From assembly GCA_964512695.1 (NCBI GenBank), contig CAZEJU010000003.1, positions 9,897 to 73,896 on the forward strand: a stretch of 64,000 nucleotides of DNA, written 5' to 3'. This document shows, piece after piece, positions 28,895 through 64,000 of this stretch (position 1 is the stretch's first letter; the number at the start of each line of letters is the position of its first letter). This DNA comes from an uncultured Gammaproteobacteria bacterium (GTDB taxonomy: Bacteria; Patescibacteriota; Microgenomatia; Levybacterales; UBA12049). A program made the translations under genes and the position numbers. The notes below the pieces were generated by a model. That model saw only the letters and a program-made list of their open reading frames with translations, did no database searches and was not told the origin of the DNA.

Positions 28895-29133
28895 TTCCTA
28901 GTACTGTTACTACTTATGAACCCGAATTTAGGCTGATCGCAACCTCCTCATTATAATATTGTTGGGCATTAAAGTTTTAAACATGTAAGCTTTACAATAA
29001 ATACAAATTTTCTTACTGTTATCTCTAAATTTAAGTTTTCGTAATAATTCGCATTAGAGAATAATGAAATACTCAACATCCGAATTAATACGAAATAGTT
29101 ATATGTGTGAGATTATTTGAGCAGATGTATAAC

Positions 29134-29442
29134 CTACATTTTTATTTCAACATCAACACCGGCTGGAAGCTCGAGATGTGTTAAACTATCAATTGTCTTG
29201 TCTGTTGGAGAAACTATATCTATAAGCCGCTTATGCACTCTTATCTCAAAATGATCCCGTGCATCTTTATCTATAAATGGCGATCTATTTACAGCATAAA
29301 GGCTTCTATCTGTTGGTAATGGAATTGGACCCACTATCTTTGCACCAGTTCGGATTGCTGTATCAAGAATTTGTTGACAACACGCATCGAGAACACGTGA
29401 ATCATAACTTTTTAGTCGTACTCGTATTTTTCCTTTCGGCAT
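29134..29442 (-). CDS. rpsJ: 30S ribosomal protein S10
   Basis: [44 protein letters not shown]. Confidence 0.9.
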
Positions 29443-29490
29443 ATGTCTATATTATTAACTCCAACAAACTGTTAAAGAGCACTGTCCAAT

Positions 29491-29518
29491 AAAAAATAGG
29501 CCTGAGGCCTATTTTTTT
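29491..29518. terminator. intrinsic terminator hairpin (A6-stem-loop-T7) at the 3' end of tuf, bidirectional in form
   Basis: aaaaaataggcc-tga-ggcctattttttt overlapping the tuf stop codon. Confidence 0.65.
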
Positions 29519-30698
29519 AAGCGATAATTTTAGTGATAACACCTGCTCCGACAGTTTTACCACCTTCGCGGATAGCGAAGCGTTGTCCCTCTTCGAGAGC
29601 AACTGGCACAATAAGCTTAACTTTCATTTTACTATTATCACCAGGCATAACCATTTCAACACCTTCTGGTAATTCAACTGCACCAGTTACATCTGTGGTT
29701 CGAATATAAAATTGTGGGCGGTATCCTTTAAAGAATGGCGTATGTCTTCCACCCTCTTCTTTCGTAAGAATATATGCTTCAGCGTCAAATTCTGTATGTG
29801 GTGTAATTGAACCTGGTTTAGCTAATACCTGTCCTCTTTCGACATCATCTTTTTCAACTCCTCGAAGAAGAAGACCGACATTATCTCCAGCTTGACCTTC
29901 ATCAAGTTGCTTTCTAAACATCTCGACACCAGTGACAACTGTAGATTTTGTGGGACGAAGACCAATAATTTCAACTGTATCATTAATCTTTACAACACCT
30001 CGATCAATTCTTCCTGTAACGACTGTACCTCGACCTTTAATAGAGAAAACATCCTCAACGGCCATTAAGAAAGGCTTATCTACAGGGCGTTCTGGCGTAG
30101 GAATATAATTATCTACTGCATCCATTAATTCCATGATTTTCTTCTCATATTCTGCATCACCCTCTAATGCCTTAAGAGAAGATCCTCGGATTATTGGCAC
30201 GTCATCACCTGGATATTTATACTTGGTAAGCAATTCACGGACTTCCATTTCAACGAGATCGAGAAGTTCAGCATCTTGTACCATATCACACTTATTGAGA
30301 TAAACAACGATTGCTGGAACACCGACTTGATAAGCTAAGAGAATATGTTCTCGGGTTTGAGGCATTGGACCATCTGGTGCGGAAACGACGAGGATAGCAC
30401 CATCCATCTGCGCAGCCCCAGTAATCATATTTTTAATATAATCAGCATGACCTGGAGCATCAATGTGAGCATAATGTCTTTTTGCAGTTTCGTATTCAAT
30501 GTGAGAAATGTTAATGGTGACCCCACGAGCTTTTTCTTCTGGAGCATTATCAATATCTTCGTACTTTTTTGCTTGAGCGAGACCTTGCTTTGCAAGTACT
30601 GTCGCAATTGCTGCTGTTGTTGTGGTTTTACCATGGTCAACATGACCAATAGTTCCAATATTTACGTGTGTTTTAGTTCTTTGAAATTTATCTGCCAT
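29517..30698 (-). CDS. tuf: elongation factor Tu
   Basis: [21 protein letters not shown], full-length EF-Tu. Confidence 0.97.
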
Positions 30699-30723
30699 AG
30701 TTTTATTGTTAAGACAAAATAAA

Positions 30724-30824
30724 TCTCATTTGGGAATGAGATATAGTGTATATTACACTACTTTGTTTTATTCGTCAATACCCTTTTAATAATTTAATAA
30801 AAATTAATTAAGAGTAGTGTAATA
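30724..30824. promoter_or_regulatory. tuf upstream/leader region with a 7-bp-stem hairpin and an exact 12-mer AGTAGTGTAATA present twice in inverted orientation
   Basis: Hairpin tctcatt-tggg-aatgaga (30724-30741). Palindrome tagtgta-tat-tacacta (30744-30760). AGTAGTGTAATA lies at 30813-30824, with its reverse complement at 30751-30762. Confidence 0.4.
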
Positions 30825-30867
30825 AACAATTACTTATTTTACAATAACCTTTATATCTATGCAATAT

Positions 30868-31530
30868 CTATTTTTGTAGATAAGCAGGTAACTCACCGAA
30901 ATTATGAAGAATATTTTTTGCATTAAGCCCTAAATTTATAAATTGCTCTTTTGTAGTAAAACCTGTCGTTACTGCTATAAAGGAAATACCCTTTGCTGCG
31001 GCTGCTTGATAATCTACGACATTATCTCCTACATATATCACTTCTTGTGACGAAATCCCTAACTGTAGTAATAATTCTAAACCTGCATCAAAAACTCTCG
31101 GGTCAGGTTTATGAAAGGGAAAATCTTCACCACTGAAGAAAAAAGTATAAGTATCATCCGGTAAGTGTAAATATCTTCTAATGGTATTCTCCATGCCTTT
31201 CCGAGGACCTGAACTAATCACTCCAAGTTTATAACCTGCTTTTTTTAGAGATGAAATTGTTATTTTCGTAAAGGGAAAGGGTTGTAAACAGAAATCAATT
31301 TCTTGAGCATGTTGTAGAAAACTCTTGGTTAACTTTTCTTCAGGTATTCCTGGCCATAAACCTGGTAAAAACGTTTTTAATGGTTTTCCCCATTGTGAAG
31401 CAACTGTCTTAAGAGAAGGATTGTCTAACTTGTATGCTGTCGAAAAAGATTTATAAAGATTAAGACATGATTGTAAAGAAGCAACTTTTGTATCATCCCA
31501 ATCACAGATAATTGCTTTAATGTGTTTCAT
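30868..31530 (-). CDS. HAD-IA family hydrolase (phosphatase)
   Basis: Motif I IICDWDDT, motif IV YVGDNVVDYQAA. Confidence 0.7.
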   Translation of the reverse strand: MKHIKAIICDWDDTKVASLQSCLNLYKSFSTAYKLDNPSLKTVASQWGKPLKTFLPGLWPGIPEEKLTKSFLQHAQEIDFCLQPFPFTKITISSLKKAGYKLGVISSGPRKGMENTIRRYLHLPDDTYTFFFSGEDFPFHKPDPRVFDAGLELLLQLGISSQEVIYVGDNVVDYQAAAAKGISFIAVTTGFTTKEQFINLGLNAKNILHNFGELPAYLQK

Positions 31531-31963
31531 GAGGACTTCTGGAATGTATAAACTCTTTTGCTTTCGATAATGCAAACTTTCTAACATTAGTCGTTGCTAA
31601 CTTAAGGGCATCATCAATACATATCCAAACGAGCCGTGAGTCAGGCTCTCCTTTTTCTTTAATATGAGAAGGAATTTCCCCTTTCCACTTTGTTACTAAA
31701 AACGCGAAATATCGAGAGCCTGTTTCTTCACGAATAGTATTACCAGCATACTGATATGCAAGTACTTTGATTTGTTCTCCAAGCTCTTCAGCGATTTCCC
31801 GTTTCATCGCTATTTGAGCATACTTTTCATCAATGTTTTTATCACCATGTTCAATCCCGCCTCCGGGAATATGCATCTCTTCATATACACCGCGTGGCCG
31901 GAACTCAAGAAGAACATCTCTATCTTTTATGAATAAAAATACTACAGCTTCTCCCATAAGCAA
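31517..31963 (-). CDS. NUDIX hydrolase
   Basis: Nudix box GGGIEHGDKNIDEKYAQIAMKREIAEELG. Confidence 0.8.
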   Translation of the reverse strand: MLMGEAVVFLFIKDRDVLLEFRPRGVYEEMHIPGGGIEHGDKNIDEKYAQIAMKREIAEELGEQIKVLAYQYAGNTIREETGSRYFAFLVTKWKGEIPSHIKEKGEPDSRLVWICIDDALKLATTNVRKFALSKAKEFIHSRSPHETH

Positions 31964-32119
31964 AACCTATCTATTATACGCTATTTTTCTCTTAATAGAT
32001 AGTCAAAGGTATCTTGCAAGGAGGAATTCCACATTCATCTGAGCTTTATATAACATCTTGCTCTACAACTTTCTTACATATTCTTTATTTAAATAAAATT
32101 ACAAAAAACTGTCGTTTTC

Positions 32120-32779
32120 CTATAGAGAGAAAACCTTTCTAACTTCTTGGAGAACTATTTGCCAATCTTTGCATATAACTACATGTATATCATCTCTGGG
32201 AGATTCTTCGCGATCATATAAAAAAACCGTTCCTTGATACGTAGCTGGTAGCTCTTTCACAAGATTTTCATTATCATCAATAATACCTATTACTTCAGGA
32301 TAAAGAGATTCAAGTACTTTTGCTTTCCATTTATTCGCATCCTCAAGCGGAATTGCCTTGGGTCGTGCTATGACCTCTGCTTCTGGAAATGCATGTTTTT
32401 TTAACCATTTTTTTGTTCCTAAAATCACAGAGTCAGGTCGAGTTGTTAAATAAGCGACTATGGGTAGCATACGATGTACTTCTTGTATAATAATGTCAAC
32501 TCCTTCTATTAATGGAAGACTTTCCTGCAATGAATCGTCATTTCTTCTATCTTCCATCCACTGTAAAGCCTCTGGTGTTTGCCAATAGGGAACAAGCTGT
32601 GTATATCGATATTTAGCGATAACTTGCTGAGGAGATAGATTTTCAGGATTACCGAACCTTTTAGACAGTTCTTTTACCCAGTAACCAACGGTCCATGATA
32701 ATGTCTCGTCAATATCTACAGCTATACCTCTTTTTTTCTCTTTAATTAGTTTTTCTTGTAATGTATTAATCGAACTCAT
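32120..32779 (-). CDS. HAD-like hydrolase (possible 5'(3')-deoxyribonucleotidase-type)
   Basis: DIDETL motif I and IIDDN motif IV. Confidence 0.4.
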   Translation of the reverse strand: MSSINTLQEKLIKEKKRGIAVDIDETLSWTVGYWVKELSKRFGNPENLSPQQVIAKYRYTQLVPYWQTPEALQWMEDRRNDDSLQESLPLIEGVDIIIQEVHRMLPIVAYLTTRPDSVILGTKKWLKKHAFPEAEVIARPKAIPLEDANKWKAKVLESLYPEVIGIIDDNENLVKELPATYQGTVFLYDREESPRDDIHVVICKDWQIVLQEVRKVFSL

Positions 32780-32788
32780 AACTGAAAA

Positions 32789-33094
32789 TTATATAACCAC
32801 TGAAACTAAATCTATCGCTGTATGTCCTCCAGTTGAAAAAACTATCGCTTTAATAGATGTATCTTGTAACATTTTATGAAAATCAGTAATTCGGTCTTCT
32901 GTGGTACCTGATGAGTAATACTGTCTTCCTAATGTGTGTGAACCTAGTACAATCTCTACTTCTAAACGTTCAGAAAAAGCTTTAACAGCAGCAAAGAATT
33001 CTTCTTTTCTATGCTGAATAGTATTTGAAGGAGAAATAATACCTACTTTGTCACCTTTTCTTAGTCTTGGTGGGATAAAAACATTCATGAGCAA
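32789..33094 (-). pseudogene. N-terminal fragment of a peptidase S66 (LD-carboxypeptidase)-like protein, about 100 of an expected 300 aa
   Basis: PPRLRKGDKVGIISPS...TEDRITDFHKMLQDTSIKAIVFSTGGH matches the S66 N-terminal domain. The catalytic C-terminal domain is absent. Confidence 0.4.
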
Positions 33095-33107
33095 ATTATA
33101 TCAGAGT

Positions 33108-33617
33108 CTATGGAGCATACTGAAAAGAATCGGCTAGAGAATTTAGTGTATCAAAGAGGAGTTCTTCAGAAGTGGTTAATACATATACATACCTTTCTCC
33201 TGAAAAAATAAAATAATAAAGGTCATTGTTAATAAAGCCCTTAACTGCAGGTAAATCGTCAATGGTAAACGTTTCACGTTTGGATAAAGAAAAAAGATTA
33301 TTATTAGTAAAATGTTGAAGGAATTCTTCGATATTTTCCTTATCTGTTGGTACACGCTTAATTGTTATATCTCCATCCTGTTTATGAAAAATTACTTCAT
33401 TTGTATCTTCTATCACTTGGAAAAAATTACTAACCTCTACAGAAAAAAGCATATCTTCTGAAGAAAAAGTTCGCATTTTTTCTTCAACTCTTGGTTTTTG
33501 AATGGTGTTTAAAGAATTTTTCGTATCTTGAAAAAGAAATACGAGAAGACAGAAGCCAAGGATAAATATACCGAAGTTAATGAAAAAATCTTTTTTCGTT
33601 TTTCCATGCAGTACCAT
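33108..33617 (-). CDS. membrane-anchored hypothetical protein
   Basis: A single N-terminal TM helix and no other motif. Confidence 0.4.
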   Translation of the reverse strand: MVLHGKTKKDFFINFGIFILGFCLLVFLFQDTKNSLNTIQKPRVEEKMRTFSSEDMLFSVEVSNFFQVIEDTNEVIFHKQDGDITIKRVPTDKENIEEFLQHFTNNNLFSLSKRETFTIDDLPAVKGFINNDLYYFIFSGERYVYVLTTSEELLFDTLNSLADSFQYAP

Positions 33618-33658
33618 ACTTCTACATTAACGTGGAACTGAATGAATTGCAATAAATA

Positions 33659-34750
33659 TTAAAAATAGGAGTACGCCCAGTAGCTAAATTGATAAAGACC
33701 TTTTGACTTTAAGTATTTTATTTTTTGATTAACAGATTCTAAAGTTTCAAACCAGATAATGTGCTTCTTCCCATTCGCATCTTTATATGAAACTGTTGTT
33801 TCTTTCGACTCTTCATCCTTTTCTAAGAAACAATTTAATTTTTTACAGTCTTTATAGATCATACTCTCGATTTCAGAAGTACTACGTGATACACCAATCT
33901 TCTGAGAAATATTTTTCTCATCAATTTCCCAGTCATATCCATAGAGTCCGAAAATAAATACAATTTTTTCTAAAGGAGCATCTTGAGTTAAACGGTTTAT
34001 TAATAACTCCATATCATAACCATACGTTTCTTGCCCTGATAACGGAAAGTTTGGACCAGGATTCCCGCCAGCTTTATGGAGATCATAAGCCATAAGATAG
34101 AGCTGATCAACGTATTTCGACAATGTACTAATCTCAAAAGGCCGAACTCTATAATAGGTGTCTCCGTATATGGTCATAGAAAAAGTCAGGTCTTCTTTTT
34201 TAACGGAAAAAGAAAAACTTTCAATAAACTTATTAATATTTTGAATAACTGACTCGAAAGGAAGTGCAGACAATTCGAGGTTTAACACAATTCCATCAAA
34301 TCCATACTCTTTTGCTATTTTAATTGTTTCAGTTATAAAGATGTTTTGATTCTTTTTATTCTCCAAAATCGTAAAATTTGTCTTTGAGTCTAACATTCGC
34401 ACTGCAAGTAGTTTAGACTTTCCTTCTGCTATTTTAGTGAATTGCTTTAACCGAAGATATCCTGCGTCTTGTGTGTTTATTGTTTCTCCTTTAGGAGCAA
34501 TCCCGAAATATATTACTGTATCGTACTTTTGTAAATTCTCCGGGGTTTTAGGTATTGCCCAGTAAGGAACAAAAATTGAAGACTTTTCTTCTCTTATTAT
34601 TATCGTAGGAGAGACAACAGTATTTTTTTGTGTTTTTTCTTCTCGCTTTACAGGTGCAGTGTCTTTACTAAAAAAAATTATGAGGAAAAAAACTGAGATT
34701 ATTAGAAAAAAAAGTTTTCTCATGCAGGTATTATATCGGTAACGAGGCAC
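33659..34750 (-). CDS. secreted glycoside-hydrolase-like TIM-barrel protein (GH18-like DG..LNLE motif)
   Basis: N-terminal signal/TM. YGFDGIVLNLE resembles the GH18 DGxDxDWE catalytic strand. Confidence 0.35.
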   Translation of the reverse strand: MPRYRYNTCMRKLFFLIISVFFLIIFFSKDTAPVKREEKTQKNTVVSPTIIIREEKSSIFVPYWAIPKTPENLQKYDTVIYFGIAPKGETINTQDAGYLRLKQFTKIAEGKSKLLAVRMLDSKTNFTILENKKNQNIFITETIKIAKEYGFDGIVLNLELSALPFESVIQNINKFIESFSFSVKKEDLTFSMTIYGDTYYRVRPFEISTLSKYVDQLYLMAYDLHKAGGNPGPNFPLSGQETYGYDMELLINRLTQDAPLEKIVFIFGLYGYDWEIDEKNISQKIGVSRSTSEIESMIYKDCKKLNCFLEKDEESKETTVSYKDANGKKHIIWFETLESVNQKIKYLKSKGLYQFSYWAYSYF

Positions 34751-34768
34751 AAAAGGAAATTAATAATT

Positions 34769-35074
34769 TCAAGTAACCTCATCGAGAATAATTCGTTTAC
34801 TAAATAACCCTGCTTCTTTAGCTTTCTTTTGTTTAATTTGCTTTATTTTTTTTCTACTAAGTCCTCTTGCTTCCACTATAGCATCAAGCACCTCTAAAAT
34901 ATCCGCCATCTCCTCTTCGTTTTTTGCAAACAAAAATTCATTTATTTCTTCCTGGAGTTTTTCATCCAATTTTTTAAGGTATTCTCTATCATCCGCAATA
35001 TGAGTTACAGGTTTTTTACCTCTTGCCTGTATATTGAAGGGCACGTTGTCGCGAACAAGTTTATCGTATCTCAT
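34769..35074 (-). CDS. MazG-like NTP pyrophosphohydrolase (PRA-PH fold house-cleaning enzyme)
   Basis: YDKLVRDNVP...EE.ADILEVL signature. Confidence 0.55.
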   Translation of the reverse strand: MRYDKLVRDNVPFNIQARGKKPVTHIADDREYLKKLDEKLQEEINEFLFAKNEEEMADILEVLDAIVEARGLSRKKIKQIKQKKAKEAGLFSKRIILDEVT

Positions 35075-35742
35075 GAATATACTGTATCGATTTTTTTCTT
35101 AATAAGAAAATGTTCTTGTTTAGGAAGTTTTTCACTTCTTTCTAAAATACCTTGGGCATCATGCCATTGACTCTTATGCTCCATCATTCCCTTTACCTTT
35201 ATATCCCATACTTTACTCGTATCAATTGTTTCGTTTATCTCTTCGTTTTTATATCCCGGTGGGAAATAGATAAAATACTCATCTTCTCGTTTTCTTTGCA
35301 CTTCATCAAGACAAAAGTACATTATTTTTTTTATGTAATCCTTTTTTTCAAAAATATATGATGTGACCATAGAAACAGCAACGTGATCGATATGTCCCGA
35401 AACTCCACGGGGTTCGTATGTTAGGAGAGTAGTAGGTCTGAACTTATCAAGTTCATGCTGTATTTTCTCGGCAAGTTCATGATAGATACTGTTACTAAGA
35501 GTGCCATCTTTATATCCTAAAAAAATGACGTTCTTTACACCTAACACTTTAGCAGAACGTTCAAGTTCTTCTCTACGAAGCTCTCCCAGCTCACATTCTT
35601 CTTGAAGACTAGTATCCCCTGCATCGCCATCAGTAACGCAAATAATATATACATCATGCTGCTGGGCGAGTAGTGTAATAGTACCTCCTGGTCCAAAAGC
35701 TTCATCATCAGGATGAGCAAAAATACAAACTATCGTTTCCAT
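35071..35742 (-). CDS. PIG-L/LmbE family N-acetylglucosaminyl deacetylase
   Basis: IFAHPDDEAFGPGGTI motif. Confidence 0.8.
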   Translation of the reverse strand: METIVCIFAHPDDEAFGPGGTITLLAQQHDVYIICVTDGDAGDTSLQEECELGELRREELERSAKVLGVKNVIFLGYKDGTLSNSIYHELAEKIQHELDKFRPTTLLTYEPRGVSGHIDHVAVSMVTSYIFEKKDYIKKIMYFCLDEVQRKREDEYFIYFPPGYKNEEINETIDTSKVWDIKVKGMMEHKSQWHDAQGILERSEKLPKQEHFLIKKKIDTVYS

Positions 35743-35791
35743 GATGGATTTATTTTACTATACTTGAAGCTAACTTAACAAATTTTAGCTA

Positions 35792-36061
35792 TTAACTTTT
35801 TGTTTCTTTACCTGTTTGTCCTTCTCCTTCAGTTAAAGCTAGAAGACTTCCCATTTCTTTAAGAAAACGTTTTGCATGATTACGACTCATACCTATTCGT
35901 GACACAATTCTTAACTGGTTGGAAGGACCTAGTTTCTGGCAAATATCGAGTACCACTCCATCCTCATTTGTTGTCATAAGAATATTATCTGTATAAAGTA
36001 TCGGTGTAGTATCAACATTTATATTTATTTGTAATTCATTTTTTTTATCTATAAAAATCAC
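35792..36061 (-). CDS. hypothetical protein (DUF3467-like?)
   Basis: Small ORF; weak resemblance only. Confidence 0.3.
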   Translation of the reverse strand: MIFIDKKNELQININVDTTPILYTDNILMTTNEDGVVLDICQKLGPSNQLRIVSRIGMSRNHAKRFLKEMGSLLALTEGEGQTGKETKS

Positions 36062-36112
36062 CTCCGTCAGTTATGCATTATTAACAAAGACCGTCTAAAT
36101 TGTAGTATAACT

Positions 36113-37129
36113 CTATATTCTTAACCCTGCGTTTTTTAAAATCTCATCAGAGGTTAATGGAACTATATTTGTACCGAATGATTTATTTAAACCCTCAAGC
36201 AAATAGTTTGCAAAAAGTCCATTTAGTACTGTACCTGGATGGATTGTATCACTAAGAAAAGCCCTTTCTGGATTATCACCTGGAATATATAATGAAATAT
36301 TTTCTGATCCTACTTTTGTACTTCCAAGAATGGCATTTGAAACTAATTTTCTATAATAATCATTTATATCTAGTAGTGTAATTTTACGTTTATCAGCTAT
36401 TTCAACAAGTTTTCTATTGACACTTGCGATAGCATTTGAAACACGTTCTCTTCCTTCATCATTTCTATTTGCAACTTCAATAACAGGACTAAGATTCCAA
36501 TCAGGTACGGTAACCAACACGATTTTAGAATCTGCAAGTTTCCCATTATTCAATCTAATTTTTTGAATCGTATCTAACATGAGTGTAATATTCTCAACAA
36601 TGTCTTCAATTTTTTCACGGAGTTCTCTTTCAGAAAGCACACCATTATAAATTGGTAAATAACCGTCTTTTGTATTAAAAGGCGAGAAATCATTTCCTCC
36701 GATATAAATAATTACGGCATTAATTTCTCCATTTGCTACATACTGCGCTAGACCCGTATGCTGTCCATTAGCAATAGCGTCACTGATTGTAGCTCCACTT
36801 CGAGACCAGTTATATTGAAATCCGGTTCTTCTTGCATCCCCCCATTGATTCCATACACCGAAGTTTATTCTCCTGTTTTTTACTAACTGTTCAACCCAAT
36901 TTAAGGTTGTGGGGGCGTATTCATATCCTCTTGCATCATCTGCCTGATATTCGTCTGATAAACTATCTCCTATTATTCCTATACCTTTAATAACGAAAGT
37001 TTGCTTAGTTTCGCGAAGAAACAATTTCATAAAGTATTTATCGAATATTTCTGGCCGAAAATACGTCATTAATAATGTAATAAGAAACGTGATACTAAAG
37101 AGAAAAAGTATATACTGATTTTTTGACAT
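36113..37129 (-). CDS. secreted SGNH/GDSL-family hydrolase (lipase/esterase or carbohydrate esterase)
   Basis: N-terminal TM/signal. GDSLSDEY block I. GGNDF and a DxxH-like (DTIHP) block at the C-terminus. Confidence 0.7.
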   Translation of the reverse strand: MSKNQYILFLFSITFLITLLMTYFRPEIFDKYFMKLFLRETKQTFVIKGIGIIGDSLSDEYQADDARGYEYAPTTLNWVEQLVKNRRINFGVWNQWGDARRTGFQYNWSRSGATISDAIANGQHTGLAQYVANGEINAVIIYIGGNDFSPFNTKDGYLPIYNGVLSERELREKIEDIVENITLMLDTIQKIRLNNGKLADSKIVLVTVPDWNLSPVIEVANRNDEGRERVSNAIASVNRKLVEIADKRKITLLDINDYYRKLVSNAILGSTKVGSENISLYIPGDNPERAFLSDTIHPGTVLNGLFANYLLEGLNKSFGTNIVPLTSDEILKNAGLRI

Positions 37130-37182
37130 AACGTGGCTTAGTATAGAAGGTTACAAAGAAAGGTTCAACTGTAAAATACATT

Positions 37183-37710
37183 CTATTCAACAATACTTAC
37201 TGTTCGCAGCATCTCATTAAAGATAGCCTCTTCATGCTTATCTATAAGCTGTAAAGAATAGTAGCCTTTTTTGAAAGGAAAATAATATGCAGATTTATAG
37301 TTATATTTGTTATCAAAAATAAATGCTTTTTTTCCATCTATAATACTTTCTTGTAAGAATCCTAGATAACGTTGCTGGGGATTATAGAAATCTTCAATAA
37401 AACTATTTGCTGATACTAAAAATATAACGGATATCTGCTTTCTATCATTATTGAAAACAACCATAAGATCAGACGTACCAGGTCCATAATTTTCCTTAAA
37501 CGTCCAAGTAGAAGGATAATATATCGAAACATGAAAATAAGAAGCATCTTCTTTTTCATATTTTTTCCAAAATATTTCTGCTGGCTTCCGAGTCATTTCC
37601 TTTATGAGAGTTTTCGAAGAATCCCAATTTACTTTCACAACAATAGTGATACTAATTAATACGATAGTTAAAAAAATTCCTGCTAGAAAAATACCTTGTT
37701 CTCGCTTCAT
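37183..37710 (-). CDS. membrane-anchored hypothetical protein
   Basis: N-terminal TM, no motif. Confidence 0.4.
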   Translation of the reverse strand: MKREQGIFLAGIFLTIVLISITIVVKVNWDSSKTLIKEMTRKPAEIFWKKYEKEDASYFHVSIYYPSTWTFKENYGPGTSDLMVVFNNDRKQISVIFLVSANSFIEDFYNPQQRYLGFLQESIIDGKKAFIFDNKYNYKSAYYFPFKKGYYSLQLIDKHEEAIFNEMLRTVSIVE

Positions 37711-37753
37711 TATTTATAATCTTTACAAGTACAGATCATGAAGTCAAGAGAAG

Positions 37754-38341
37754 TTACTTTGCCTTACGCAACTTCTCGTTTGTTTCTTTTTGCACCAATT
37801 CTCGCAATTCTTTTATCACATCATTAAAATTACAATGTTCGTGAGCGTAGATTAGATTAAATTCTTTTTCAATTTCGTTCCATGTAGAAATATCTGCTTC
37901 ATTATGTTGAACAAGTGTTTCTACTTTTTCAACAGCCTGTGCAAACTTTGATTCAGTACTTTGTCTTTTTTCGAACTCTTCCCATATAGCTGTTAATTCT
38001 TGCTGTTTATGTTTTGGCAACATCTTTAGTAATTTTTCTAAAGCTTTTTGCTCTAACTCATGCTTATTTGCTAATACTCCTTTCCAGGCATGATGATCGC
38101 CTGCATAGATTTCAGCAAGATCGTGGATAGTTAGCATTTGTAATACTTTTCCGATATCGACTTTCTTTCCAATTTCTGAATAAAGAACCAATGCAATTAA
38201 TCCAGACCGCCAACTATGCTCAGCAACACTTTCCTGTCTTCCATCAGATAACCAAGAATGACGAAGCAACTTTTTCAGCGGCTCAACTTCGTGGAAAAAA
38301 GACAGGTAGTCTCTTAACTTTTTGGTAGATGCCTTATTCAT
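37754..38341 (-). CDS. HD-domain phosphohydrolase (YfbR-like 5'-deoxynucleotidase family)
   Basis: H..RSGLIALVL....HDLAEIYAGD metal-binding pattern. Confidence 0.6.
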   Translation of the reverse strand: MNKASTKKLRDYLSFFHEVEPLKKLLRHSWLSDGRQESVAEHSWRSGLIALVLYSEIGKKVDIGKVLQMLTIHDLAEIYAGDHHAWKGVLANKHELEQKALEKLLKMLPKHKQQELTAIWEEFEKRQSTESKFAQAVEKVETLVQHNEADISTWNEIEKEFNLIYAHEHCNFNDVIKELRELVQKETNEKLRKAK

Positions 38342-38549
38342 ATGGCTAAGTATAAACCATTTTCCTAGAAGAGAGAAGTATTTATTAACGAATTAAGGTA
38401 ATTAAAAATTAAATTCAATAAAAAGCTTAAAACCATAATTGATCCGACAATCAATCCCATGTTGCTCCCAAACTCAAAGTAATTAATGTTACTAAATAAG
38501 GCAAACAAATACATTTATAGTAAAGATAAAAAAGTAGCTACCAACAAAT

Positions 38550-40664
38550 TTATGCAGCGATGCGGCCGGTAAAGGTGGATTTAGCAAGCATTGCTTGGAC
38601 AATATTGTTTGGAACTTCTTCATAATGAGAAGGTTCCATATAATATGATGCACGACCTTGAGACATAGAACGTAACTGTGTAGCATAGCCGGATAACTCA
38701 GCAAGTGGAACTGATGCGAGAATAATAGTAGCATTTCCACGTTCTTCAGTACCCATAATCTGTGCACGTTTTGCTGAAAGGTCTCCGATAACATCTCCCA
38801 TAAACTCTGATGGAGTCGTAACTTCTACCTTCATAATAGGCTCAAGTAACGACATTTGCGCTTTCTTCGCTGCTGCTTGCATAGCTTGAGATGCAGCTAT
38901 TTTAAATGCTTGTTCAGAAGAATCGACATCATGATATGAACCGTCATAACACGTAACTTTAATATCGACTAATGGGTAGCCGAGCATAACACCATTATCC
39001 AGCATTTCTGTAACTCCTTTTTGCACAGCTTTTACGAATTCAGCAGGAATTGCGCCTCCCTTAATGGCATCGACAAATTCAAATCCTTCCCCACGTGGCT
39101 TTGGTTCAACCCGAAGCATACAGTGTCCATACTGTCCACGTCCTCCTGATTGGCGAATATATTTACCTTCTGCTTCCGCTTGAGAGGCAAAGGTTTCTTT
39201 ATAGGCAACTTGAGGGGCACCGACGTTTGCTAAAACATTAAATTCTCTTTTCATACGATCTACCATAATTTCAAGCTGAAGCTCGCCAATACCCGAGATA
39301 ATTGTCTGCCCAGTCTCATGATTGGTTTTCACTCGAAATGTCGGATCTTCTTCCATAAGACGTTTCAATGCAAGACCTAGTTTTTCCTGATCTGATTTCG
39401 TTTGAGGTTCTATAGCGAGGGATATAACAGGCTCTGGAAAGGAAATCTGCTCAAGGATAATTGGCTTCGCCTCATCACATAAGGTGTCACCTGTGATAGT
39501 ATCTTTTAAACCCACAATGGCAACAATTTCTCCTGCGTATGCTTCTTTTATCTCTTCTCGCTCATTTGCATGCATTAAGAGTAATCGGCCAACACGTTCC
39601 CGTATATTTTTTGAACTATTATAAATATATGATCCTGACTGAATAACACCAGAATAAACACGGAAATATGTTAATTTACCAACATGGGGATCATTTTGAA
39701 TTTTAAATGCAAGACCAGAATATGCTTCTTCTGGAATGAGCTTACGGACTTCTTCTTGCTCTGTATTCGGATTTTTACCTTTTACTTCACCCAAATCAAC
39801 AGGTGAGGGAAGGTAGTCGATTACAGCATCGAGGAGAGGCTGAACGCCTTTATTCCGGAGGGAAGTACCCGCATAAATCGGAACAAGCTTATAAGCAATT
39901 ACTGCAGCTCGCAGTGCTTTTTTTAATTCCTCAACTGTAGGTTCTTCACCACCAAGATATTTCTCTAGCATCTGATCATCAGTTTCTGATATCTTTTCGA
40001 TGAGTTTATTACGATATTCCTCAACCTGAGCTTTCATGTGTTCAGGGATTTCATCAGTGATATCAAATTTTGCACCTAATTCTTCAGAATTCCAAATGAT
40101 TACTTTTCGAGTTAATAAATCTACATTACCTACGTAGGTGTTTTCTGATCCGATTGGTAATACCATAATCGCTGGATTAGCACCTAATCGTTTTTCAATA
40201 CTTCCTACTGTTTTGAGGAAATCTGCACCGAGTTTATCCATCTTATTTACAAAACAAATACGCGGCACTCTATATTTATCTGCCTGTCGCCATACAGTTT
40301 CAGACTGTGACTGGACACCTTCTTCAGCATCAAGAACGGTAATCCCCCCATCAAGAACACGTAATGAACGTTCGACTTCTGCAGTAAAATCTACATGACC
40401 TGGAGTATCAATAATATTAATACGATGGTCTTTCCAAAATGTAGTTGTTGCAGCGGAGACAATTGTAATACCCCGTTCTCTTTCCTGCTCCATCCAGTCC
40501 ATTTGGGTATTACCCTCATCAATATCTCCAATTTTATAAGTCCGACCAGTATAGAAAAGAATACGCTCTGTGGTAGTCGTTTTCCCTGCGTCGATATGGG
40601 CGATAATTCCGATATTTCGGATCTTATCAAGAGGATACATTCGTGATTTTGCTACATCTGCCAT
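38550..40664 (-). CDS. fusA: elongation factor G
   Basis: [31 protein letters not shown], full five-domain length. Confidence 0.97.
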
Positions 40665-40670
40665 AAAAAA

Positions 40671-40749
40671 AGTTAAAAATTCAAACTACAAAGTTCAAAA
40701 CTACAAGAAAATTAAGAACTTTTCATTTTTACCTTTGAACTTTTAACTC
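40671..40749. repeat. imperfect palindrome (AGTTAAAA..TTCAAA units) immediately upstream of fusA
   Basis: Left arm agttaaaaattcaaactacaaagttcaaaactac. The reverse complement of the right arm is agttaaaagttcaaaggtaaaaatgaaaa. Confidence 0.6.
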
Positions 40750-40797
40750 TAAAAGTATAGCACACATTTCTTGTTTATTCTAGTAGGTTAGATGACA

Positions 40798-41661
40798 CTA
40801 CACACTTAAGATTGCAAGGAAAACAATTCCTGAAAGCGTAGTTAGAAGACCTACAATCTGCTGTCTTGTTATAGACTCTTTTAAAAATAAAAAGGCAAGG
40901 AGGACGAACATAGTTGGGGAAGAGCTTGCAATAGGAGTAACAATGGCTGTAAGTCCTGTGCCCAATGCAGCGTTAAGACTGAAATCGCTAATTCCTGTAA
41001 GAAAACCAAAAAGAAAAACGTTCCGAAACACCTCAGGGTCTTTAGGTATCGGTAACGGAAGACCTCGAAGTTTCGTATAGAGATAAATAACCGGAAAAAC
41101 AATCATTGAGATGAACCCAGGCCAAAACCAGCCAATTTCTTTTATAGGTATTTTTAAGAATGTAAAGTATATTCCCCAACAAAGCATTGTCGTAAATGCA
41201 AGCATTACACTTTTATCGAATTTTACCTTCTTTTCGCGTAGATCACGAAGATTAAATGTACAGAGAAATACTCCTATGAGGATAAATAAGATTGCAAAGA
41301 CTTGTAACTCTGTAATTTTCTCATGAAAGAAAATGACCGATAACGGTATTACTATAACTGAATAAGAAGCAGAAATCGTTGCGGTAATAGATGCAGCACT
41401 TGCTTTTAATGCTTCAGTATAAGTAACGATCCCTGTGATTAAAATAACACCAAGAAAAAGTGTAAAAAGAAACATTGAAGTTGACAGAGTATGCAATTCT
41501 GATAAAGCAAAAGGAATATAGATAAGAGAAAGTAGTACCCTAATACATAACATCCAAAAAGTGGTCGAATAACCTCCCATTTTACGAGTCGCCAAGGTGC
41601 CAAACATATCGCCTGTACTCCATCCAAAGTAGGGAATAAGAGCTAATAAAATAGGTATCAT
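40798..41661 (-). CDS. EamA/DMT-superfamily transporter (10 TM)
   Basis: Two-fold repeat of five hydrophobic helices, about 290 aa. Confidence 0.55.
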   Translation of the reverse strand: MIPILLALIPYFGWSTGDMFGTLATRKMGGYSTTFWMLCIRVLLSLIYIPFALSELHTLSTSMFLFTLFLGVILITGIVTYTEALKASAASITATISASYSVIVIPLSVIFFHEKITELQVFAILFILIGVFLCTFNLRDLREKKVKFDKSVMLAFTTMLCWGIYFTFLKIPIKEIGWFWPGFISMIVFPVIYLYTKLRGLPLPIPKDPEVFRNVFLFGFLTGISDFSLNAALGTGLTAIVTPIASSSPTMFVLLAFLFLKESITRQQIVGLLTTLSGIVFLAILSV

Positions 41662-41900: not shown

Positions 41901-42440
41901 ATGGCAAAAGATATCCTGTCCATCAATTTGCTAGATGATAAACAAAAAAGCTTTACTGACACTATTCTCGACTGGGCAATTTATATCGGCCGTTTACTTG
42001 TAATTATTACTGAAGCAGTAGCCTTATTCGTTTTTATTAATCGCTTTACGCTGGATAGAAAGCTTATCGATCTTCATGATGAAATTAAGAAGAATCAATC
42101 CTTTATAGGATATATGCAAAGTCGTGAAGAAATATACAGAGGAATACATGAAAAACTACAAACGAACTTTATCAGCAGTACAGACAACGATGAAAGAATA
42201 ATCCTCTTTGAAGAACTTACTAGTAATGTGAATCCTCAGTTAAGTATTCTTAGCTTCTCAGTAAATCCTTCTTCTTTAACCATTGCGGTACAAGCACGTT
42301 CTATACAAGCGCTTTCTGATTTCCATGAAAAAGTAAAACAACACCCATCCATCGCTTCAATTACCGTCGATAAAATAGAAAATAAGACAGCAAACGCCAT
42401 AATTCTTGTTTCCTATACGGCAAAGCTAAAAGCTAAATAA
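41901..42440 (+). CDS. PilN-like type IV pilus assembly protein
   Basis: N-terminal INLL(D) motif followed by a single TM and an about 120-aa periplasmic domain, of typical PilN length. Confidence 0.5.
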   Translation: MAKDILSINLLDDKQKSFTDTILDWAIYIGRLLVIITEAVALFVFINRFTLDRKLIDLHDEIKKNQSFIGYMQSREEIYRGIHEKLQTNFISSTDNDERIILFEELTSNVNPQLSILSFSVNPSSLTIAVQARSIQALSDFHEKVKQHPSIASITVDKIENKTANAIILVSYTAKLKAK

Positions 42441-42442
42441 TT

Positions 42443-43057
42443 ATGATATTTTTTAAACAAACTTTTTTAAAGGATTTCGCAAAAGAGAGGTATATGGCAA
42501 TTGTACGTGCGTATCCTCGACTCCAGGAGGATAAAACACAACGATATATTCTACTAACGTTGACGTTCCTAGCTTTATCATTTTTAGGAATATTAGCTAT
42601 AAATCCAACACTAAAAACTATTACAGAGTTAAATAAGAAACTCGAGGATAGTGAATTTGTTAATCAGGCCCTTAAAACAAAACTTGCTAATCTCTCTTCA
42701 TTAAATAGTCAATATGAACGTATGTCTACTGATATACCTCTTATTGAAGCAGCTGTACCTAGTTCTGCTCAAGCGCCTTTCCTACTGGGACAATTACGAA
42801 CACTGGCAAAGACTACTGATGTAACAATTACCAGTCTTCAAACATACCAAATCAACATGACACAACAGAAAATTACTCCACCTAGAACTGTTAATTTTAT
42901 CTTTACCTTAAGTATAGAGGGTGAAAAAAGTAACTTAGTAGATTTTCTTCATGCTTTAAATTCATTTGATAGAACTGTCGTTATTGAGTCATTACATTTT
43001 ATAAGTGAGGAAGAACAACGCTTAACAATTCGCGCAAAAGCATTTTTCATACCATGA
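42443..43057 (+). CDS. PilO-like type IV pilus assembly protein
   Basis: Short cytoplasmic N-terminus, one TM, a coiled-coil, then a C-terminal domain ending LVDFLHALNSFDRTVVIESLHF...RLTIRAKAFF, typical of PilO. Start overlaps the PilN-like stop. Confidence 0.45.
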   Translation: MIFFKQTFLKDFAKERYMAIVRAYPRLQEDKTQRYILLTLTFLALSFLGILAINPTLKTITELNKKLEDSEFVNQALKTKLANLSSLNSQYERMSTDIPLIEAAVPSSAQAPFLLGQLRTLAKTTDVTITSLQTYQINMTQQKITPPRTVNFIFTLSIEGEKSNLVDFLHALNSFDRTVVIESLHFISEEEQRLTIRAKAFFIP

Positions 43058-43410
43058 AAAAAAGGAAATATACAATTCAAAAAGATCTGACGATCTTGTC
43101 ATTTTCTCTGTTTGTAGTAGTTACACTATGGATCGCATTTACCATACACGGAATCTATGTCACAAGCACTATTAGTGATACATTGCAAATACAGATAGTT
43201 CCTATTAAAGGTGTTTTTGATGAATCCAGTATAGAAATTATCAAAAACAGAACTCCAATAATTCCTGATTATTCCGCAAGTGTATCAGCAAATACACTCC
43301 GTATTAATGCTTTACCTATTGATCAACCGCAACCAACGTCCGAAGTAACTCTTACACCAACTGATGTATTTTTACCGAATAGTACATCTAGCGCAGAGCC
43401 ATCCTTATGA
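43054..43410 (+). CDS. small single-TM protein (PilP-like position)
   Basis: Translationally coupled (4-nt overlaps on both sides); no motif. Confidence 0.35.
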   Translation: MKKRKYTIQKDLTILSFSLFVVVTLWIAFTIHGIYVTSTISDTLQIQIVPIKGVFDESSIEIIKNRTPIIPDYSASVSANTLRINALPIDQPQPTSEVTLTPTDVFLPNSTSSAEPSL

Positions 43411-44870
43411 AACCAACAATCTTGAATAAAAAAATACCATCATATCTTGGATTTCTATCACTAATTTTAATGATACCCATAATTGCGTGGATAGTCGAAA
43501 ATAATACTGTCGTACCCGTCAGAGCAAACCCGGATCATACACCACAAGATGTACAGATTAGTAACATTACTGACAACTCTTTTACTATCTCTTATACAAC
43601 AATTGAAGCTACTATCGGTTCTGTCTCATATGGACCGACAGACAAACTGGGTCAAATAGCATTTGATATTCGAGATACCGCTCGTGGAAAACCATTACCT
43701 CACCGAGTCCATTATTTCGACATAAAAGGTCTTCAACCTAATACAACGTATTACTTCATATTACTGTCTGGTAATACGACGTATAAAAAAGACAATAAGC
43801 CATACGCTATAACCACAGGGCCAACTCTCTCCCAGACACAAACTAGTAGAAAAATCGCAGGAAACGTTTTGCTACCAAACGGCAGCTATCCTGGAGAGAC
43901 AGTTGTATATGCAATAAGTAGTACTTCACAACTTCTTTCAAAACTGGTAGAAGTAGACGGATCTTTCTCCATAGATAATTCATCCCTACGAACTAGTACG
44001 CTTGATTCGTATGCGGAAGAACAAGAAACTGCAGAGTTTCAAATACGTTTAGTAAACAGTGATATGCAAACGTACATGAATGTTTTATCGAAAGATCTAG
44101 ATTCACTCCCTACGGTTACTCTGTCGAAAAACTATGATTTTACTTATGAATTACTTCCTACTAAATCACTGGACAACAACGTAAATCTCTTAGATACCGC
44201 AGAGCTTTTCCCAGAATATTCGACAAATACTACGTTTAGCCAAACTCCTCAGATTATAGTGCCAAAGAAAGATCAAGCATTTGATGATCTCCAACCGGAA
44301 TTCCGTGGATCTGCTCCCCCTTCTAAAAATATCGAAATTAGTTTTGATACAGCGACTACAAAAGTAACTGTAAGAACTACTGCAACAGGAACATGGTTAT
44401 ATAGACCAAAACAGCCAATGACAGCAGGTAATCATACGATTATCGTCAGCATGAAAGATATATCAGGCATGACGCTAACAACGTCTCAAACCTTTGCTAT
44501 TCATGCTATAGGTAGCCAGTTTTTTGCTCCATCACCAACTGTCTCTCCTACAGCAATACCATCTCCAAGTCCATCACTAAACCCATCACCTATAGCATCG
44601 CCTTCTGTATCACCTGCTCAACCATCAATATCGCCCTCACCTTCGATATCCGTAAGTCCCACAGTATCACCTATACTGTCACCCACGGAAATTCTTATAC
44701 CTTCACCAACGTTAATTCCTAGCCCTACACAAATAACAGTATCGCTTCCACCAGCATCTCCCGTACCTAGTCTGACGCCTACTGGTAGTGGTACTGCAGT
44801 CCTCACGTTTGGCTTTGCGCTATTTGCTACGATTACAGGTGTTGTGTTATTCTTTTTAACTCATACATAA
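43407..44870 (+). CDS. large cell-surface protein: N-terminal TM/signal, FN3-like domain, C-terminal Ser/Pro/Thr-rich repeat and C-terminal TM anchor
   Basis: VQISNITDNSFTISYTT...PNTTYYFILLSG (FN3-like). SPTVSPTAIPSPSPSLNPSPIASPSVSPAQPSISPSPSISVSPTVSPILSPTEILIPSPTLIPSPTQ repeat. Terminal hydrophobic helix. Confidence 0.55.
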   Translation: MKPTILNKKIPSYLGFLSLILMIPIIAWIVENNTVVPVRANPDHTPQDVQISNITDNSFTISYTTIEATIGSVSYGPTDKLGQIAFDIRDTARGKPLPHRVHYFDIKGLQPNTTYYFILLSGNTTYKKDNKPYAITTGPTLSQTQTSRKIAGNVLLPNGSYPGETVVYAISSTSQLLSKLVEVDGSFSIDNSSLRTSTLDSYAEEQETAEFQIRLVNSDMQTYMNVLSKDLDSLPTVTLSKNYDFTYELLPTKSLDNNVNLLDTAELFPEYSTNTTFSQTPQIIVPKKDQAFDDLQPEFRGSAPPSKNIEISFDTATTKVTVRTTATGTWLYRPKQPMTAGNHTIIVSMKDISGMTLTTSQTFAIHAIGSQFFAPSPTVSPTAIPSPSPSLNPSPIASPSVSPAQPSISPSPSISVSPTVSPILSPTEILIPSPTLIPSPTQITVSLPPASPVPSLTPTGSGTAVLTFGFALFATITGVVLFFLTHT

Positions 44871-51515: not shown

Positions 51516-51550
51516 GAAATTTTCTGAATGGAATCAATGTTATTTCTTAT

Positions 51551-53210: not shown

Positions 53211-53215
53211 ACAAT

Positions 53216-63790: not shown

Positions 63791-64000
63791 ATTGCAAAAA
63801 TACCCGAATGTATTATTTCTTACATAGTGTAACCGAAAAGTTTTTGAGTGTATCCTGAAGACAATTCAAAATCTGAGAATGAGTAGTTATTTACGTTTCA
63901 AAAAGTCACATTTGAAGATACGCGAGCTGTTTACCAACGGAAGTGTGCAAATGCACGATTAGCTTCAGCTTGTTTATGCATGACGTCTTTCTTTTTCATG

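Follow-up and report, generated by a model that had tools for sequence, protein, structure and literature searches.

The str operon is open at both internal junctions in Candidatus Levybacteria, with variable genes of native composition between fusA and tuf

We analyzed a 64-kb stretch of DNA from an uncultured bacterium (contig CAZEJU010000003.1 of assembly GCA_964512695.1, positions 9,897 to 73,896; GTDB lineage Patescibacteriota, Microgenomatia, Levybacterales), here called the window, in which the str operon, the home of rpsG (ribosomal protein S7) and of the elongation factor genes fusA (EF-G) and tuf (EF-Tu), is now in three pieces, with order and strand kept. Coordinates are positions in the window, and the genes of interest are all on its minus strand. 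The two elongation factor genes are separated by a run of hydrolase and membrane protein genes, referred to below as cargo, and fusA is itself far removed from rpsG. The explanation that we hold to be probable is an erosion of the str operon that is specific to one lineage, Candidatus Levybacteria (Patescibacteria/Microgenomates), rather than the import of an island. As fusA and tuf each have a conserved sigma-70-type promoter motif, genes could have been gained, lost, or replaced at the junctions without cutting off the essential genes downstream.

Gene order at the divided operon

An earlier note on this DNA, made from the sequence alone, had described the str operon as split and non-canonical, and this holds at both internal junctions. 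The canonical order of rpsG, fusA, tuf, and rpsJ on one strand is retained, but the rpsG stop (63931) and the fusA start (40664) are 23.3 kb apart, with 21 genes on both strands between them, and tuf (29517-30698) and fusA (38550-40664) are separated by 7.85 kb of minus-strand genes. The corresponding spacers in the outgroup (the Bacilli and Clostridia loci of the EF-G scan described below) are about 30-160 bp and about 50-170 bp, respectively. The same note saw no rpsL-rpsG upstream of fusA; the 3’ end of rpsG is nevertheless within the window, upstream of fusA on the same strand, where the gene is cut by the window edge. What is left of it is the last 22 codons and the stop (63931-63999), with a translation that ends AEANRAFAHFRW*, and the minus strand at the right window edge reads ...KKKDVMHKQAEANRAFAHFRW-stop. 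This C-terminus agrees with the S7 C-termini at the rpsG 3’ ends of 75 fetched loci. The opposite-strand genes between rpsG and fusA and the conserved promoter motifs of fusA and tuf argue against a single transcription unit that would run from upstream of rpsL.

The fusA-tuf gap contains 12 open reading frames (ORFs) of at least 85 amino acids (aa), all co-oriented with fusA and tuf and mostly 9-53 nt apart, and gene calls on two independent contigs likewise count 12 cargo genes. The figure of 13 co-oriented genes given earlier is reached only if an ORF of 31-49 aa at 38365-38514 is counted, the status of which is uncertain. It sits in the 208-nt spacer between fusA and the HD_3 gene and has a GGGAG 6 nt before its internal ATG, and in L164, the locus nearest to the window in EF-G sequence, the same spacer is 54 nt long and has no counterpart of it.

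An arrangement of this kind could also arise in the assembly or binning of the genome, through a chimeric contig that joined fusA and tuf to unrelated DNA. The source is uncultured, and exact look-ups of the window’s fusA, tuf, and HD_3 proteins returned no recorded gene. Against this, Logan contigs from two different sequencing runs (SRR11524805 and SRR8893623) match positions 30531-38008 at 99.98-100% identity, including the tuf junction and a truncated S66 peptidase gene within the cargo. L164 shows the same order, with a pilN cluster first and then fusA, the cargo, tuf, rpsJ, L3, and L4, and dozens of other contigs carry fusA, a glycoside hydrolase family 18 (GH18) gene, and tuf in succession. 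We therefore consider a chimera to be exceedingly improbable.

Conservation of the gaps among relatives

Relatives were collected in three ways. A scan with the EF-G protein, at one genome per species, gave nine Levybacteria loci that form an unbiased set selected on fusA; 80 metagenome loci were found through a GH18 alignment; and two further loci, L163 and L164, were found by protein search followed by a look-up of their context. Combined, these gave 28 Levybacteria-like loci holding both fusA and tuf. In the EF-G scan, metagenome-assembled genomes (MAGs) of Candidatus Levybacteria were closest (78-86% identity), followed by other Microgenomates and then by Bacilli and Clostridia at ~60%. 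The GH18-alignment scan of metagenomes found no close relative of the window, its best matches having 48-52% identity.

In all nine loci of the unbiased set, rpsG is separated from fusA by at least 572 bp or lies more than 10 kb away, and the distance from fusA to tuf is at least 701 bp and up to 7.8 kb. The other Microgenomates mostly have canonical spacing, with few exceptions. Across the combined set, a fusA-tuf gap is present in 28/28 loci, ranging from 0.7 to 11.5 kb and holding 179 ORFs, only 119 of which (66%) are co-oriented. The synteny comparison that the earlier note had proposed thus finds a gap at the same place in every Levybacteria-like relative, which makes it old in the lineage and still non-canonical. 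In a neighbor-joining tree of EF-G, canonical outgroups come first, followed by basal Levybacteria, in which rpsG is 0.6-4 kb from fusA and a GH18 gene is in the gap, and then by a derived clade in which a divergently oriented pilN cluster abuts fusA and the gap contains both GH18 and PIG-L.

Promoter motifs and hairpins at tuf and fusA

Upstream of tuf, the window and its relatives have in common TTGACG, a 17-nt spacer, and TAnnAT. In the window, the pattern TTGAC[GAT]-N16-18-TAn[ATC][ATC]T has a single match in 64 kb, both strands counted. It lies upstream of tuf, no more than 150 nt away, in 34/39 Levybacteria-like loci, compared with 70 of 8830 background windows (0.8%). Similarly, the 150 nt upstream of fusA include an extended -10 element, TGnTATA[AC]T, in 31/33 loci, compared with 95 of the 8830 background windows (1.1%). 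Both downstream essential genes therefore have a promoter motif of their own, as judged by its conservation.

Of 40 distinct tuf leaders, 38 have a hairpin and T-run 5-9 nt past the -10 box, as opposed to 2.0 ± 1.3 in shuffled sequences. The stems differ while their pairing is kept (CTCATT/AATGAG, ACCTT/AAGGT, CCATCA/TGATGG, and GTCGCC/GGCGA), and the composite of promoter and hairpin is at the same position in L001-L010 and L084-L164. RNAalifold on MAFFT-aligned tuf leaders gave no structure, the hairpins not being aligned in register, and they were then scored by a per-sequence hairpin search against shuffles. Rfam at gathering thresholds had no match in the window. For fusA, a hairpin and T-run are present in 21/32 leaders, compared with 3.4 in shuffles. 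In many fusA leaders the ATG is directly preceded by a T-run and, ahead of that, by a short hairpin that contains GC (e.g. TTCCC-GAAA-GGGAA), where the window has a longer inverted repeat instead. We also observed that the tuf and fusA leaders of Levybacteria (the window and L001-L010) mostly have no GGAGG Shine-Dalgarno sequence and are U/A-rich before the ATG, and that a clear GGAGG precedes tuf in more distant Patescibacteria (L020, L026, L027, L029, and L055 were compared) and in Bacillus.

One locus is informative about the starting point. L010 has a bare fusA-tuf spacer of 94 nt that already contains the tuf promoter motif and hairpin, and the short fusA-tuf spacers of more distant outgroups contain no promoter but a GGAGG ribosome-binding site.

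Terminator-like hairpins in the 90 nt after fusA show no excess (5/43 loci, with 5.3 in shuffles). A stricter search for hairpin and T-run on the minus strand from 29000 to 41000 found only two, one in the tuf leader and the other directly after the tuf stop, ahead of rpsJ (29513-29495, AATAGGCC-TCA-GGCCTATT and a T-run). Hairpins similar to the latter are found in 14/31 tuf-rpsJ spacers of relatives, compared with 3.4 in shuffles, and tuf may be largely monocistronic, or the S10 cluster attenuated.

Origin and layering of the cargo

The earlier note presented the cargo as an inserted island and proposed that its composition be checked, and neither base composition nor codon usage sets it apart. 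Its GC content is 0.337 and its GC content at third codon positions (GC3) 0.233, compared with 0.341 and 0.241 for the other non-ribosomal genes of the window, and its codon-usage distance of 0.048 falls inside a null of random gene subsets (mean 0.043, 95th percentile 0.054). There is no tRNA in the 64-kb window, no meaningful flanking repeat at the cargo (only short repeats of low identity), and no integrase, transposase, or other mobility domain among the 12 cargo ORFs by Pfam. The idea of a recent or foreign insertion is not borne out: the cargo is neither an artefact nor a recognizable mobile or foreign island.

Comparison with the nearest relatives indicates how the cargo was assembled. 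L164 is 95.7% identical to the window in EF-G, 97.7% in EF-Tu, and 99% in S10, and has 10/12 of the window’s cargo genes in the same order. Reading from fusA, its order is HD_3 (74% identity), SGNH (69%), DUF3467-like (89%), PIG-L (60%), a different NUDIX gene, a 30-aa remnant of the MazG-like gene, GH18 (53%), a membrane protein (50%), a full-length S66 gene, a 188-aa hypothetical, NUDIX (78%), HAD_2 (56%), and tuf. Since they are shared with L164, 10/12 of the cargo genes pre-date the split between the two. L163 (EF-G 90.6%) has five of the window’s cargo genes, SGNH, PIG-L, MazG-like, and GH18 in order plus NUDIX, together with a distant HD_3, and its gap also contains a GH99 gene and an opposite-strand block with NadE, NadD, a methyltransferase, and an HD protein. 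L081 (EF-G 88%) has PIG-L, MazG-like, and GH18 in its gap. Among these relatives, the 175-aa membrane protein gene, the HAD-like gene at the S66 truncation, and the EamA gene upstream of fusA are found only in the window genome. The content of the gap is therefore nested and layered among close relatives, and does not come or go as one block.

Clustering of the gap ORFs from the 28 loci gives the same impression on a broader scale. GH18 is in 25/28 gaps (6/9 in the unbiased set selected on fusA) and PIG-L in 13/28, usually directly upstream of GH18, followed at a distance by DUF3467-like (three gaps), NUDIX (two), SGNH (one), and HD_3 (one), with 82 singletons. Pfam censuses of the relatives’ cargo (72 + 127 = 199 ORFs) likewise had GH18 and PIG-L as the commonest families; others were PEMT/ICMT-like, NadD, NadE, redoxins, inositol monophosphatase, Ddl, ATP-citrate lyase, MurB, DAG kinase, glyoxalase, Maf, a two-component system, and more. 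By predicted family, then, the oldest, family-wide layer of the cargo has as its main gene that of a membrane-anchored GH18/GH85-like glycosidase, to which a PIG-L deacetylase is usually joined; SGNH, MazG-like, and NUDIX belong to a sub-clade layer; and a genus-level layer common to L164 consists of HD_3, DUF3467-like, the membrane protein, S66, and HAD_2.

In L164, the 30-codon MazG-like remnant (13091-13180 of that locus) lies between PIG-L and GH18, and a distinct NUDIX gene is inserted beside it, so that one putative NTP pyrophosphatase is decayed next to another. We considered whether a required NTP pyrophosphatase in the slot between PIG-L and GH18, with MazG-like swapped for NUDIX, might be a general rule, and rejected this, as other relatives have glyoxalase-like or PEMT-like genes there, or nothing.

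A model of operon erosion

Gene order and its conservation, the native composition of the cargo, and the conservation of the motifs were observed directly. On the explanation that we favor, an internal tuf promoter and a fusA promoter would have made both junctions tolerant of insertion, and genes of native origin would then have accumulated and turned over there. The fusA promoter would read through fusA into the co-oriented cargo, which is probable because of the co-orientation, the short spacers, and the lack of any terminator-like signal until the tuf leader. Transcription of tuf would begin afresh at its own promoter, beside the first terminator-like hairpin and T-run. A second start before the NUDIX gene would also be possible, given a TATAAT box in the 156-nt spacer that precedes this gene, the sole long spacer inside the cargo. 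The earlier suggestion that the cargo is co-transcribed with the elongation factors is accordingly plausible for fusA, with which it is co-oriented and from which it is divided by no terminator-like hairpin, either after fusA or among the cargo genes themselves. It need not extend to tuf, which has its own conserved promoter motif.

Several points weigh against this explanation. That fusA and tuf have active promoters, that transcription of fusA reads on into the cargo, and that it ends at the hairpin are predictions from sequence conservation, and a generic promoter and terminator scan of the region scored no higher than shuffled sequence (44 vs. 47.7 and 7 vs. 7.3, respectively). The tuf hairpin sits downstream of the predicted -10 box, and hence it would also be in tuf’s own transcript. 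The order of events, with either the promoter or the insertions first, hangs on the single locus L010, and the tree is a quick neighbor-joining one of a single protein. Finally, the selection of the 80 metagenome loci through GH18 inflates the frequency of that gene in the gaps.

The tuf-leader hairpin could terminate incoming transcription, act as an attenuator, or stabilize the tuf mRNA at its 5’ end. It is tempting to see the composite of promoter and hairpin upstream of tuf, with its looser version at fusA, as a dedicated insulator that would stop incoming transcription and restart that of the elongation factors, but we give this proposal little credence.

Functional content of the cargo

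The coordinates and domain assignments of the cargo genes are given in Table 1. We infer all enzyme substrates, like promoter activity, read-through, and termination, from sequence, and no protein of the cargo scores high enough for an equivalog assignment by NCBIfam. The earlier note read the cargo as a discrete 7.5-kb functional island of Nudix, MazG-like, HD, and two HAD proteins together with envelope hydrolases, inserted and co-expressed with the elongation factors, perhaps as an adaptation to a scavenging life on imported nucleotides. The phosphohydrolase assignments on which this depends are of uneven quality. The HD_3 protein has the H...HD...D pattern of a YfbR-like domain and has relatives in the PDB (3kh1 and HDDC2), but scores 29 bits against the NCBIfam 5’-deoxynucleotidase model NF003009, for which the cut-off is 122. 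The NUDIX protein has the Nudix fold and box, with REIAEELGE present and an upstream spacing longer than that of the canonical GX5EX7REUXEEXGU, and it reaches no NCBIfam equivalog; beyond L164, it has orthologs in L163 (33%) and L003 (35%). The HAD_2 protein has a HAD fold with a DxDxT motif I (DWDDT, and GDNVVD further on), and its best NCBIfam models (phosphoglycolate phosphatase, PpaX, and MupP) are all far under their cut-offs. The second HAD-like protein falls below the Pfam cut-offs; a DIDETL (DxDxT) motif can be seen in its sequence, NCBIfam gave nothing, and a sequence search of the PDB gave only noise. The “MazG-like” label, which would make the 101-aa protein akin to the all-alpha NTP pyrophosphatases, finds no match in Pfam, NCBIfam, or a sequence search of the PDB (where hits were noise). 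It derives from 14 homologs that bear the COG-based name [quoted passage not shown] given by the Joint Genome Institute (JGI), and from PF01503 in one of the homologs. Orthologs of this protein are in L163 (68%) and L081 (65%).

Even so, the reported excess of nucleotide hydrolases is present in the window. Phosphohydrolase superfamilies account for 5/12 cargo genes (HAD_2, NUDIX, and HD_3 above threshold, the HAD-like and MazG-like proteins weakly) and for 0/31 of the other non-ribosomal window genes scanned, for which a post-hoc Fisher estimate is ~1e-3, or ~0.02 when the count is restricted to the three above-threshold families. The 12 genes all point the same way, the spacers between them are short, and no terminator follows fusA. 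L164 retains HD_3, NUDIX, and HAD_2 and has its second NUDIX where the window has the MazG-like gene, the L163 gap has MazG-like, NUDIX, HD_3, NadD, and NadE, and the gap of another relative holds a Maf gene. In contrast, the gap is found in every Levybacteria-like locus, and the genes conserved in it are GH18 and PIG-L rather than nucleotide hydrolases, which are scarce in the 199-ORF census (in the larger batch, NUDIX and HD had ~2 members each, and the 25 families listed included none of the HAD type). The native composition and the lack of mobility signatures, the promoter motif of tuf, and the missing equivalog matches for nucleotide substrates also speak against it. Moreover, the window, L164, and L163 are one clade, and their shared content amounts to approximately one evolutionary event. 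The predicted phosphohydrolase excess is thus inherited within the clade of the window, L164, and in part L163, and does not characterize the locus in the lineage as a whole. We consider it unlikely that the cargo is a nucleotide-related island.

A second alternative starts from the conserved part of the cargo and views it as a module for cell-wall or amino-sugar salvage, the place of which beside tuf would be selected, for example for high, growth-coupled expression, rather than neutral. Its predicted parts outside the cell would be a GH18/GH85-like endo-N-acetylglucosaminidase and an SGNH de-O-acetylase; a PIG-L de-N-acetylase would act in the cytoplasm, and an S66 LD-carboxypeptidase and a phosphatase would also belong to the module. 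In Thermococcus, a GH18 chitinase and a CE14 (PIG-L family) deacetylase make up the chitin pathway, and the recycling of murein peptides is the task of LdcA (S66), both of which count in favor of such a module. So do the frequency of GH18 in the gaps with PIG-L usually upstream of it, the N-terminal hydrophobic anchors on GH18 and SGNH and their absence from PIG-L, the intact S66 gene in L164, and the weak similarity of HAD_2 to the phosphoglycolate phosphatase/MupP group. SGNH orthologs are found in L163 (56%) as well as in L164, and homologs of the DUF3467-like protein, for which no part in the module is proposed, are in the gaps of L003, L093, and L134.

Other observations count against this reading. 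As the earlier note had recognized, its S66 gene is truncated; only the N-terminal 101 aa remain, without the two-domain structure (N and C domains with a Ser-His-Glu triad), and the next gene begins 9 nt downstream. The full-length S66+S66C gene of L164 (324 aa, 14875-15849 of that locus) is at the same place and is 63% identical over the fragment. The truncation is the same in independent samples, the fragment being identical in an independent assembly, and the window-specific HAD-like gene, which has no L164 homolog, occupies the site of the C-terminal half of the L164 S66 gene and the 188-aa hypothetical. In the GH18 protein, the motif reads FDGIVLNLE (D-G-I-V-L-N-L-E), in which only the Glu of the catalytic DxxDxDxE motif is canonical and Asn replaces the Asp of the D-x-E pair. 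Most homologs read ...D-L-E, and the window genome and ~8 others have N-x-E; this D/N-x-E pair is all that the family retains. N-x-E is the arrangement of the GH85 endo-N-acetylglucosaminidases. In relatives, the cargo interleaved with GH18 and PIG-L is not of the cell-wall kind (ATP-citrate lyase, glyoxalase, PEMT-like, and NAD synthesis genes), and six loci selected through GH18, the 10-kb flanks of which are complete, lack both fusA and tuf in the vicinity. Placement of a salvage module beside tuf by selection is possible in our view, but doubtful. Nonetheless, the combination of GH18/PIG-L with SGNH and S66 suggests an envelope or amino-sugar salvage theme that is at least as strong as the nucleotide-sanitizing one, both being predictions from family membership.

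Table 1. Features of the divided str operon and its cargo, in order of window position
Feature	Position	Strand	Evidence and remarks
rpsJ	29134-29442	-	Pfam Ribosomal_S10; opens an S10-type ribosomal protein cluster reaching ~10494, with L3, L4, L23, and L2 downstream
tuf (EF-Tu, 393 aa)	29517-30698	-	Pfam GTP_EFTU, D2, D3; 97.7% identity to L164
Predicted tuf promoter, TTGACG-17-TAATAT	30778-30750	-	Followed by an 8-bp hairpin (30742-30723) and T-run
HAD_2 (HAD-IA) phosphatase	30868-31587	-	Pfam HAD_2 E = 1.1e-22, 81.5 bits (cut-off 23.8); last cargo gene before tuf
NUDIX hydrolase	31517-31963	-	Pfam NUDIX E = 1.4e-8, 35.3 bits (cut-off 21.1)
HAD-like (NT5C/LNS2-like) putative phosphatase	32120-32779	-	Sub-threshold in Pfam: LNS2 24.4 (cut-off 27.7), NT5C 18.8 (cut-off 24.8)
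S66 LD-carboxypeptidase N-terminal fragment, 101 aa	32789-33094	-	Gene remnant; Pfam Peptidase_S66 positions 1-82 of 121 only
Membrane-anchored hypothetical, 169 aa	33108-33617	-	No Pfam match; L164 ortholog 50% identical, with a weak DUF4367 match
Membrane-anchored GH18-like (GH85-like) glycosidase	33659-34750	-	Pfam Glyco_hydro_18 E = 2.7e-24 (86.8 bits), GH85 E = 3.9e-5; most conserved cargo gene
“MazG-like” protein, 101 aa	34769-35074	-	Label from homolog names; overlaps the PIG-L stop by 4 nt
PIG-L (LmbE/CE14-type) de-N-acetylase	35071-35742	-	Pfam PIG-L E = 3.5e-32
DUF3467-like small protein, 89 aa	35792-36061	-	Weak Pfam DUF3467 match, E = 0.0019; 89% identity in L164
GDSL/SGNH hydrolase with N-terminal membrane anchor	36113-37129	-	Pfam Lipase_GDSL E = 1.2e-12; GDSLS and DxxH motifs
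Membrane-anchored hypothetical, 175 aa	37183-37710	-	Window-specific; no Pfam match; no homolog in any relative’s gap
HD_3/YfbR-like HD-domain phosphohydrolase	37754-38341	-	Pfam HD_3 E = 1.2e-41, 142.8 bits; YfbR-like 50.4 bits; L164 ortholog in the same slot
Possible small hydrophobic ORF	38365-38514	-	Status uncertain; 49 aa from first ATG, 31 aa from internal ATG
fusA (EF-G, 704 aa)	38550-40664	-	All five EF-G Pfam domains; 95.7% identity to L164, ~60% to Bacillus fusA
Predicted fusA extended -10, TGCTATACT	40754..40762	-	Followed by a leader inverted repeat (40690-40743) and T-run before the ATG
EamA/DMT transporter	40798-41661	-	Pfam EamA E = 1.2e-30; between the divergent pilN cluster and the fusA promoter
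rpsG (S7) 3’ end, cut by the window edge	63931..64000	-	Last 22 residues 59% identical to E. coli S7 by tblastn

Other features of the region

The gene directly upstream of fusA had been named as a transporter of the DMT type, which is correct (EamA). It is absent from this position in L001, L003, L005-L007, L163, and L164, and is thus specific to the window genome among the close relatives examined. The remainder of the interval up to rpsG contains a divergent PilN/PilO/Big_13 cluster, an amine oxidase, PMT_2 glycosyltransferases and other envelope-glycan genes, DUF2298, LytR, TIM, UvrD, FemAB, a nickel superoxide dismutase (Ni-SOD), and others. The cluster itself (PilN, PilO, a hypothetical, and Big_13/fn3; 41901-44870, plus strand) is divergent from fusA and keeps its position throughout the derived Levybacteria clade. 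Further upstream, an envelope-glycan block of ~9.6 kb (46230-55837), which consists of two PMT_2 genes, a methyltransferase, GT4, an epimerase, a hypothetical, and DUF2298, is missing from L007 (compared at 4541-6902 of that locus), where LytR adjoins the amine oxidase, and this is a second variable region inside the rpsG-fusA interval. The Ni-SOD gene (61455-62330, minus strand; Sod_Ni E = 1e-43) adjoins a short gene for an S26/S24-type peptidase, which is probably its maturation protease, the two forming what is probably an oxidative-stress module in a genome of the candidate phyla radiation (CPR).

Comparison with known operon arrangements

Compared with the canonical str operon, the likeness lies in the order and strand that are kept and in the fusA gene of the window, which is of the ordinary EFG I type with all domains; the difference is that a whole clade has fusA 0.6 to >20 kb from rpsG and 0.7-11.5 kb from tuf. 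In E. coli’s str operon, secondary tufA promoters lie within the fusA coding sequence, and the genes stay adjacent. The two cases are alike in that transcription of tuf need not depend on the operon’s upstream genes, but the predicted promoter here is a stand-alone, near-consensus TTGACG-17-TAnnAT with a hairpin and T-run, and up to 11.5 kb of cargo lies upstream of it. The Thermococcus-type pairs of GH18 and CE14 genes are similar to the conserved part of the cargo in that a GH18-family gene adjoins a PIG-L-family gene. They differ in that the GH18 protein of the window is highly divergent, matches GH85, and has no chitin-binding domain, and in that no glucosaminidase is encoded downstream.

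Insertions near translation operons have been described before. Brandis, Cao, and Hughes (2019) reported that translation operons of Gammaproteobacteria have been separated by small insertions of non-mobile genes, in which case the downstream operon needs a promoter (PMC6735719). The Levybacteria gaps resemble these cases in being insertions of a few genes unrelated to mobility, with cargo that is native and variable and with conserved promoter motifs at tuf and fusA. The insertions in that study lie between operons (e.g. str|S10 and rrnB|tufB), whereas those described here are inside what is normally a single operon (rpsG|fusA and fusA|tuf), and unlike the former they are fixed throughout a lineage at the level of a candidate phylum and have a conserved GH18/PIG-L core. 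In a survey of 305 genomes, Margus et al. (2011) found that among genomes with a single EF-G only two had that gene outside the str operon (PMC3150367), and a whole lineage with both junctions open is therefore uncommon. We found no paper on such operon erosion in the literature on Levybacteria or CPR bacteria with operon or fusA synteny. The process itself, erosion of an operon by insertion beside internal promoters, is of an already known kind, and we do not propose a new kind of system.

Implications for Levybacteria and for core operons

Few gene arrangements in bacteria are as conserved as the str operon, which is used as an anchor for synteny, for the extraction of marker genes, and for checks of MAG quality. 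Knowing that Levybacteria have opened it at both internal junctions, with a conserved GH18/PIG-L pair amid cargo of fast turnover, helps in the annotation of their genomes, and what appeared to be a nucleotide-sanitizing island is mostly a feature of one sub-clade. If the promoter-hairpin composites were indeed insulators, the fusA|tuf and rpsG|fusA junctions would be “safe harbors” for the gain, swap, and loss of genes in a reduced CPR genome, and the cargo would ride on the strong fusA promoter, which would explain the accumulation of salvage-type enzymes. More generally, the lineage offers a natural example of how internal promoters would render core operons tolerant of insertion.

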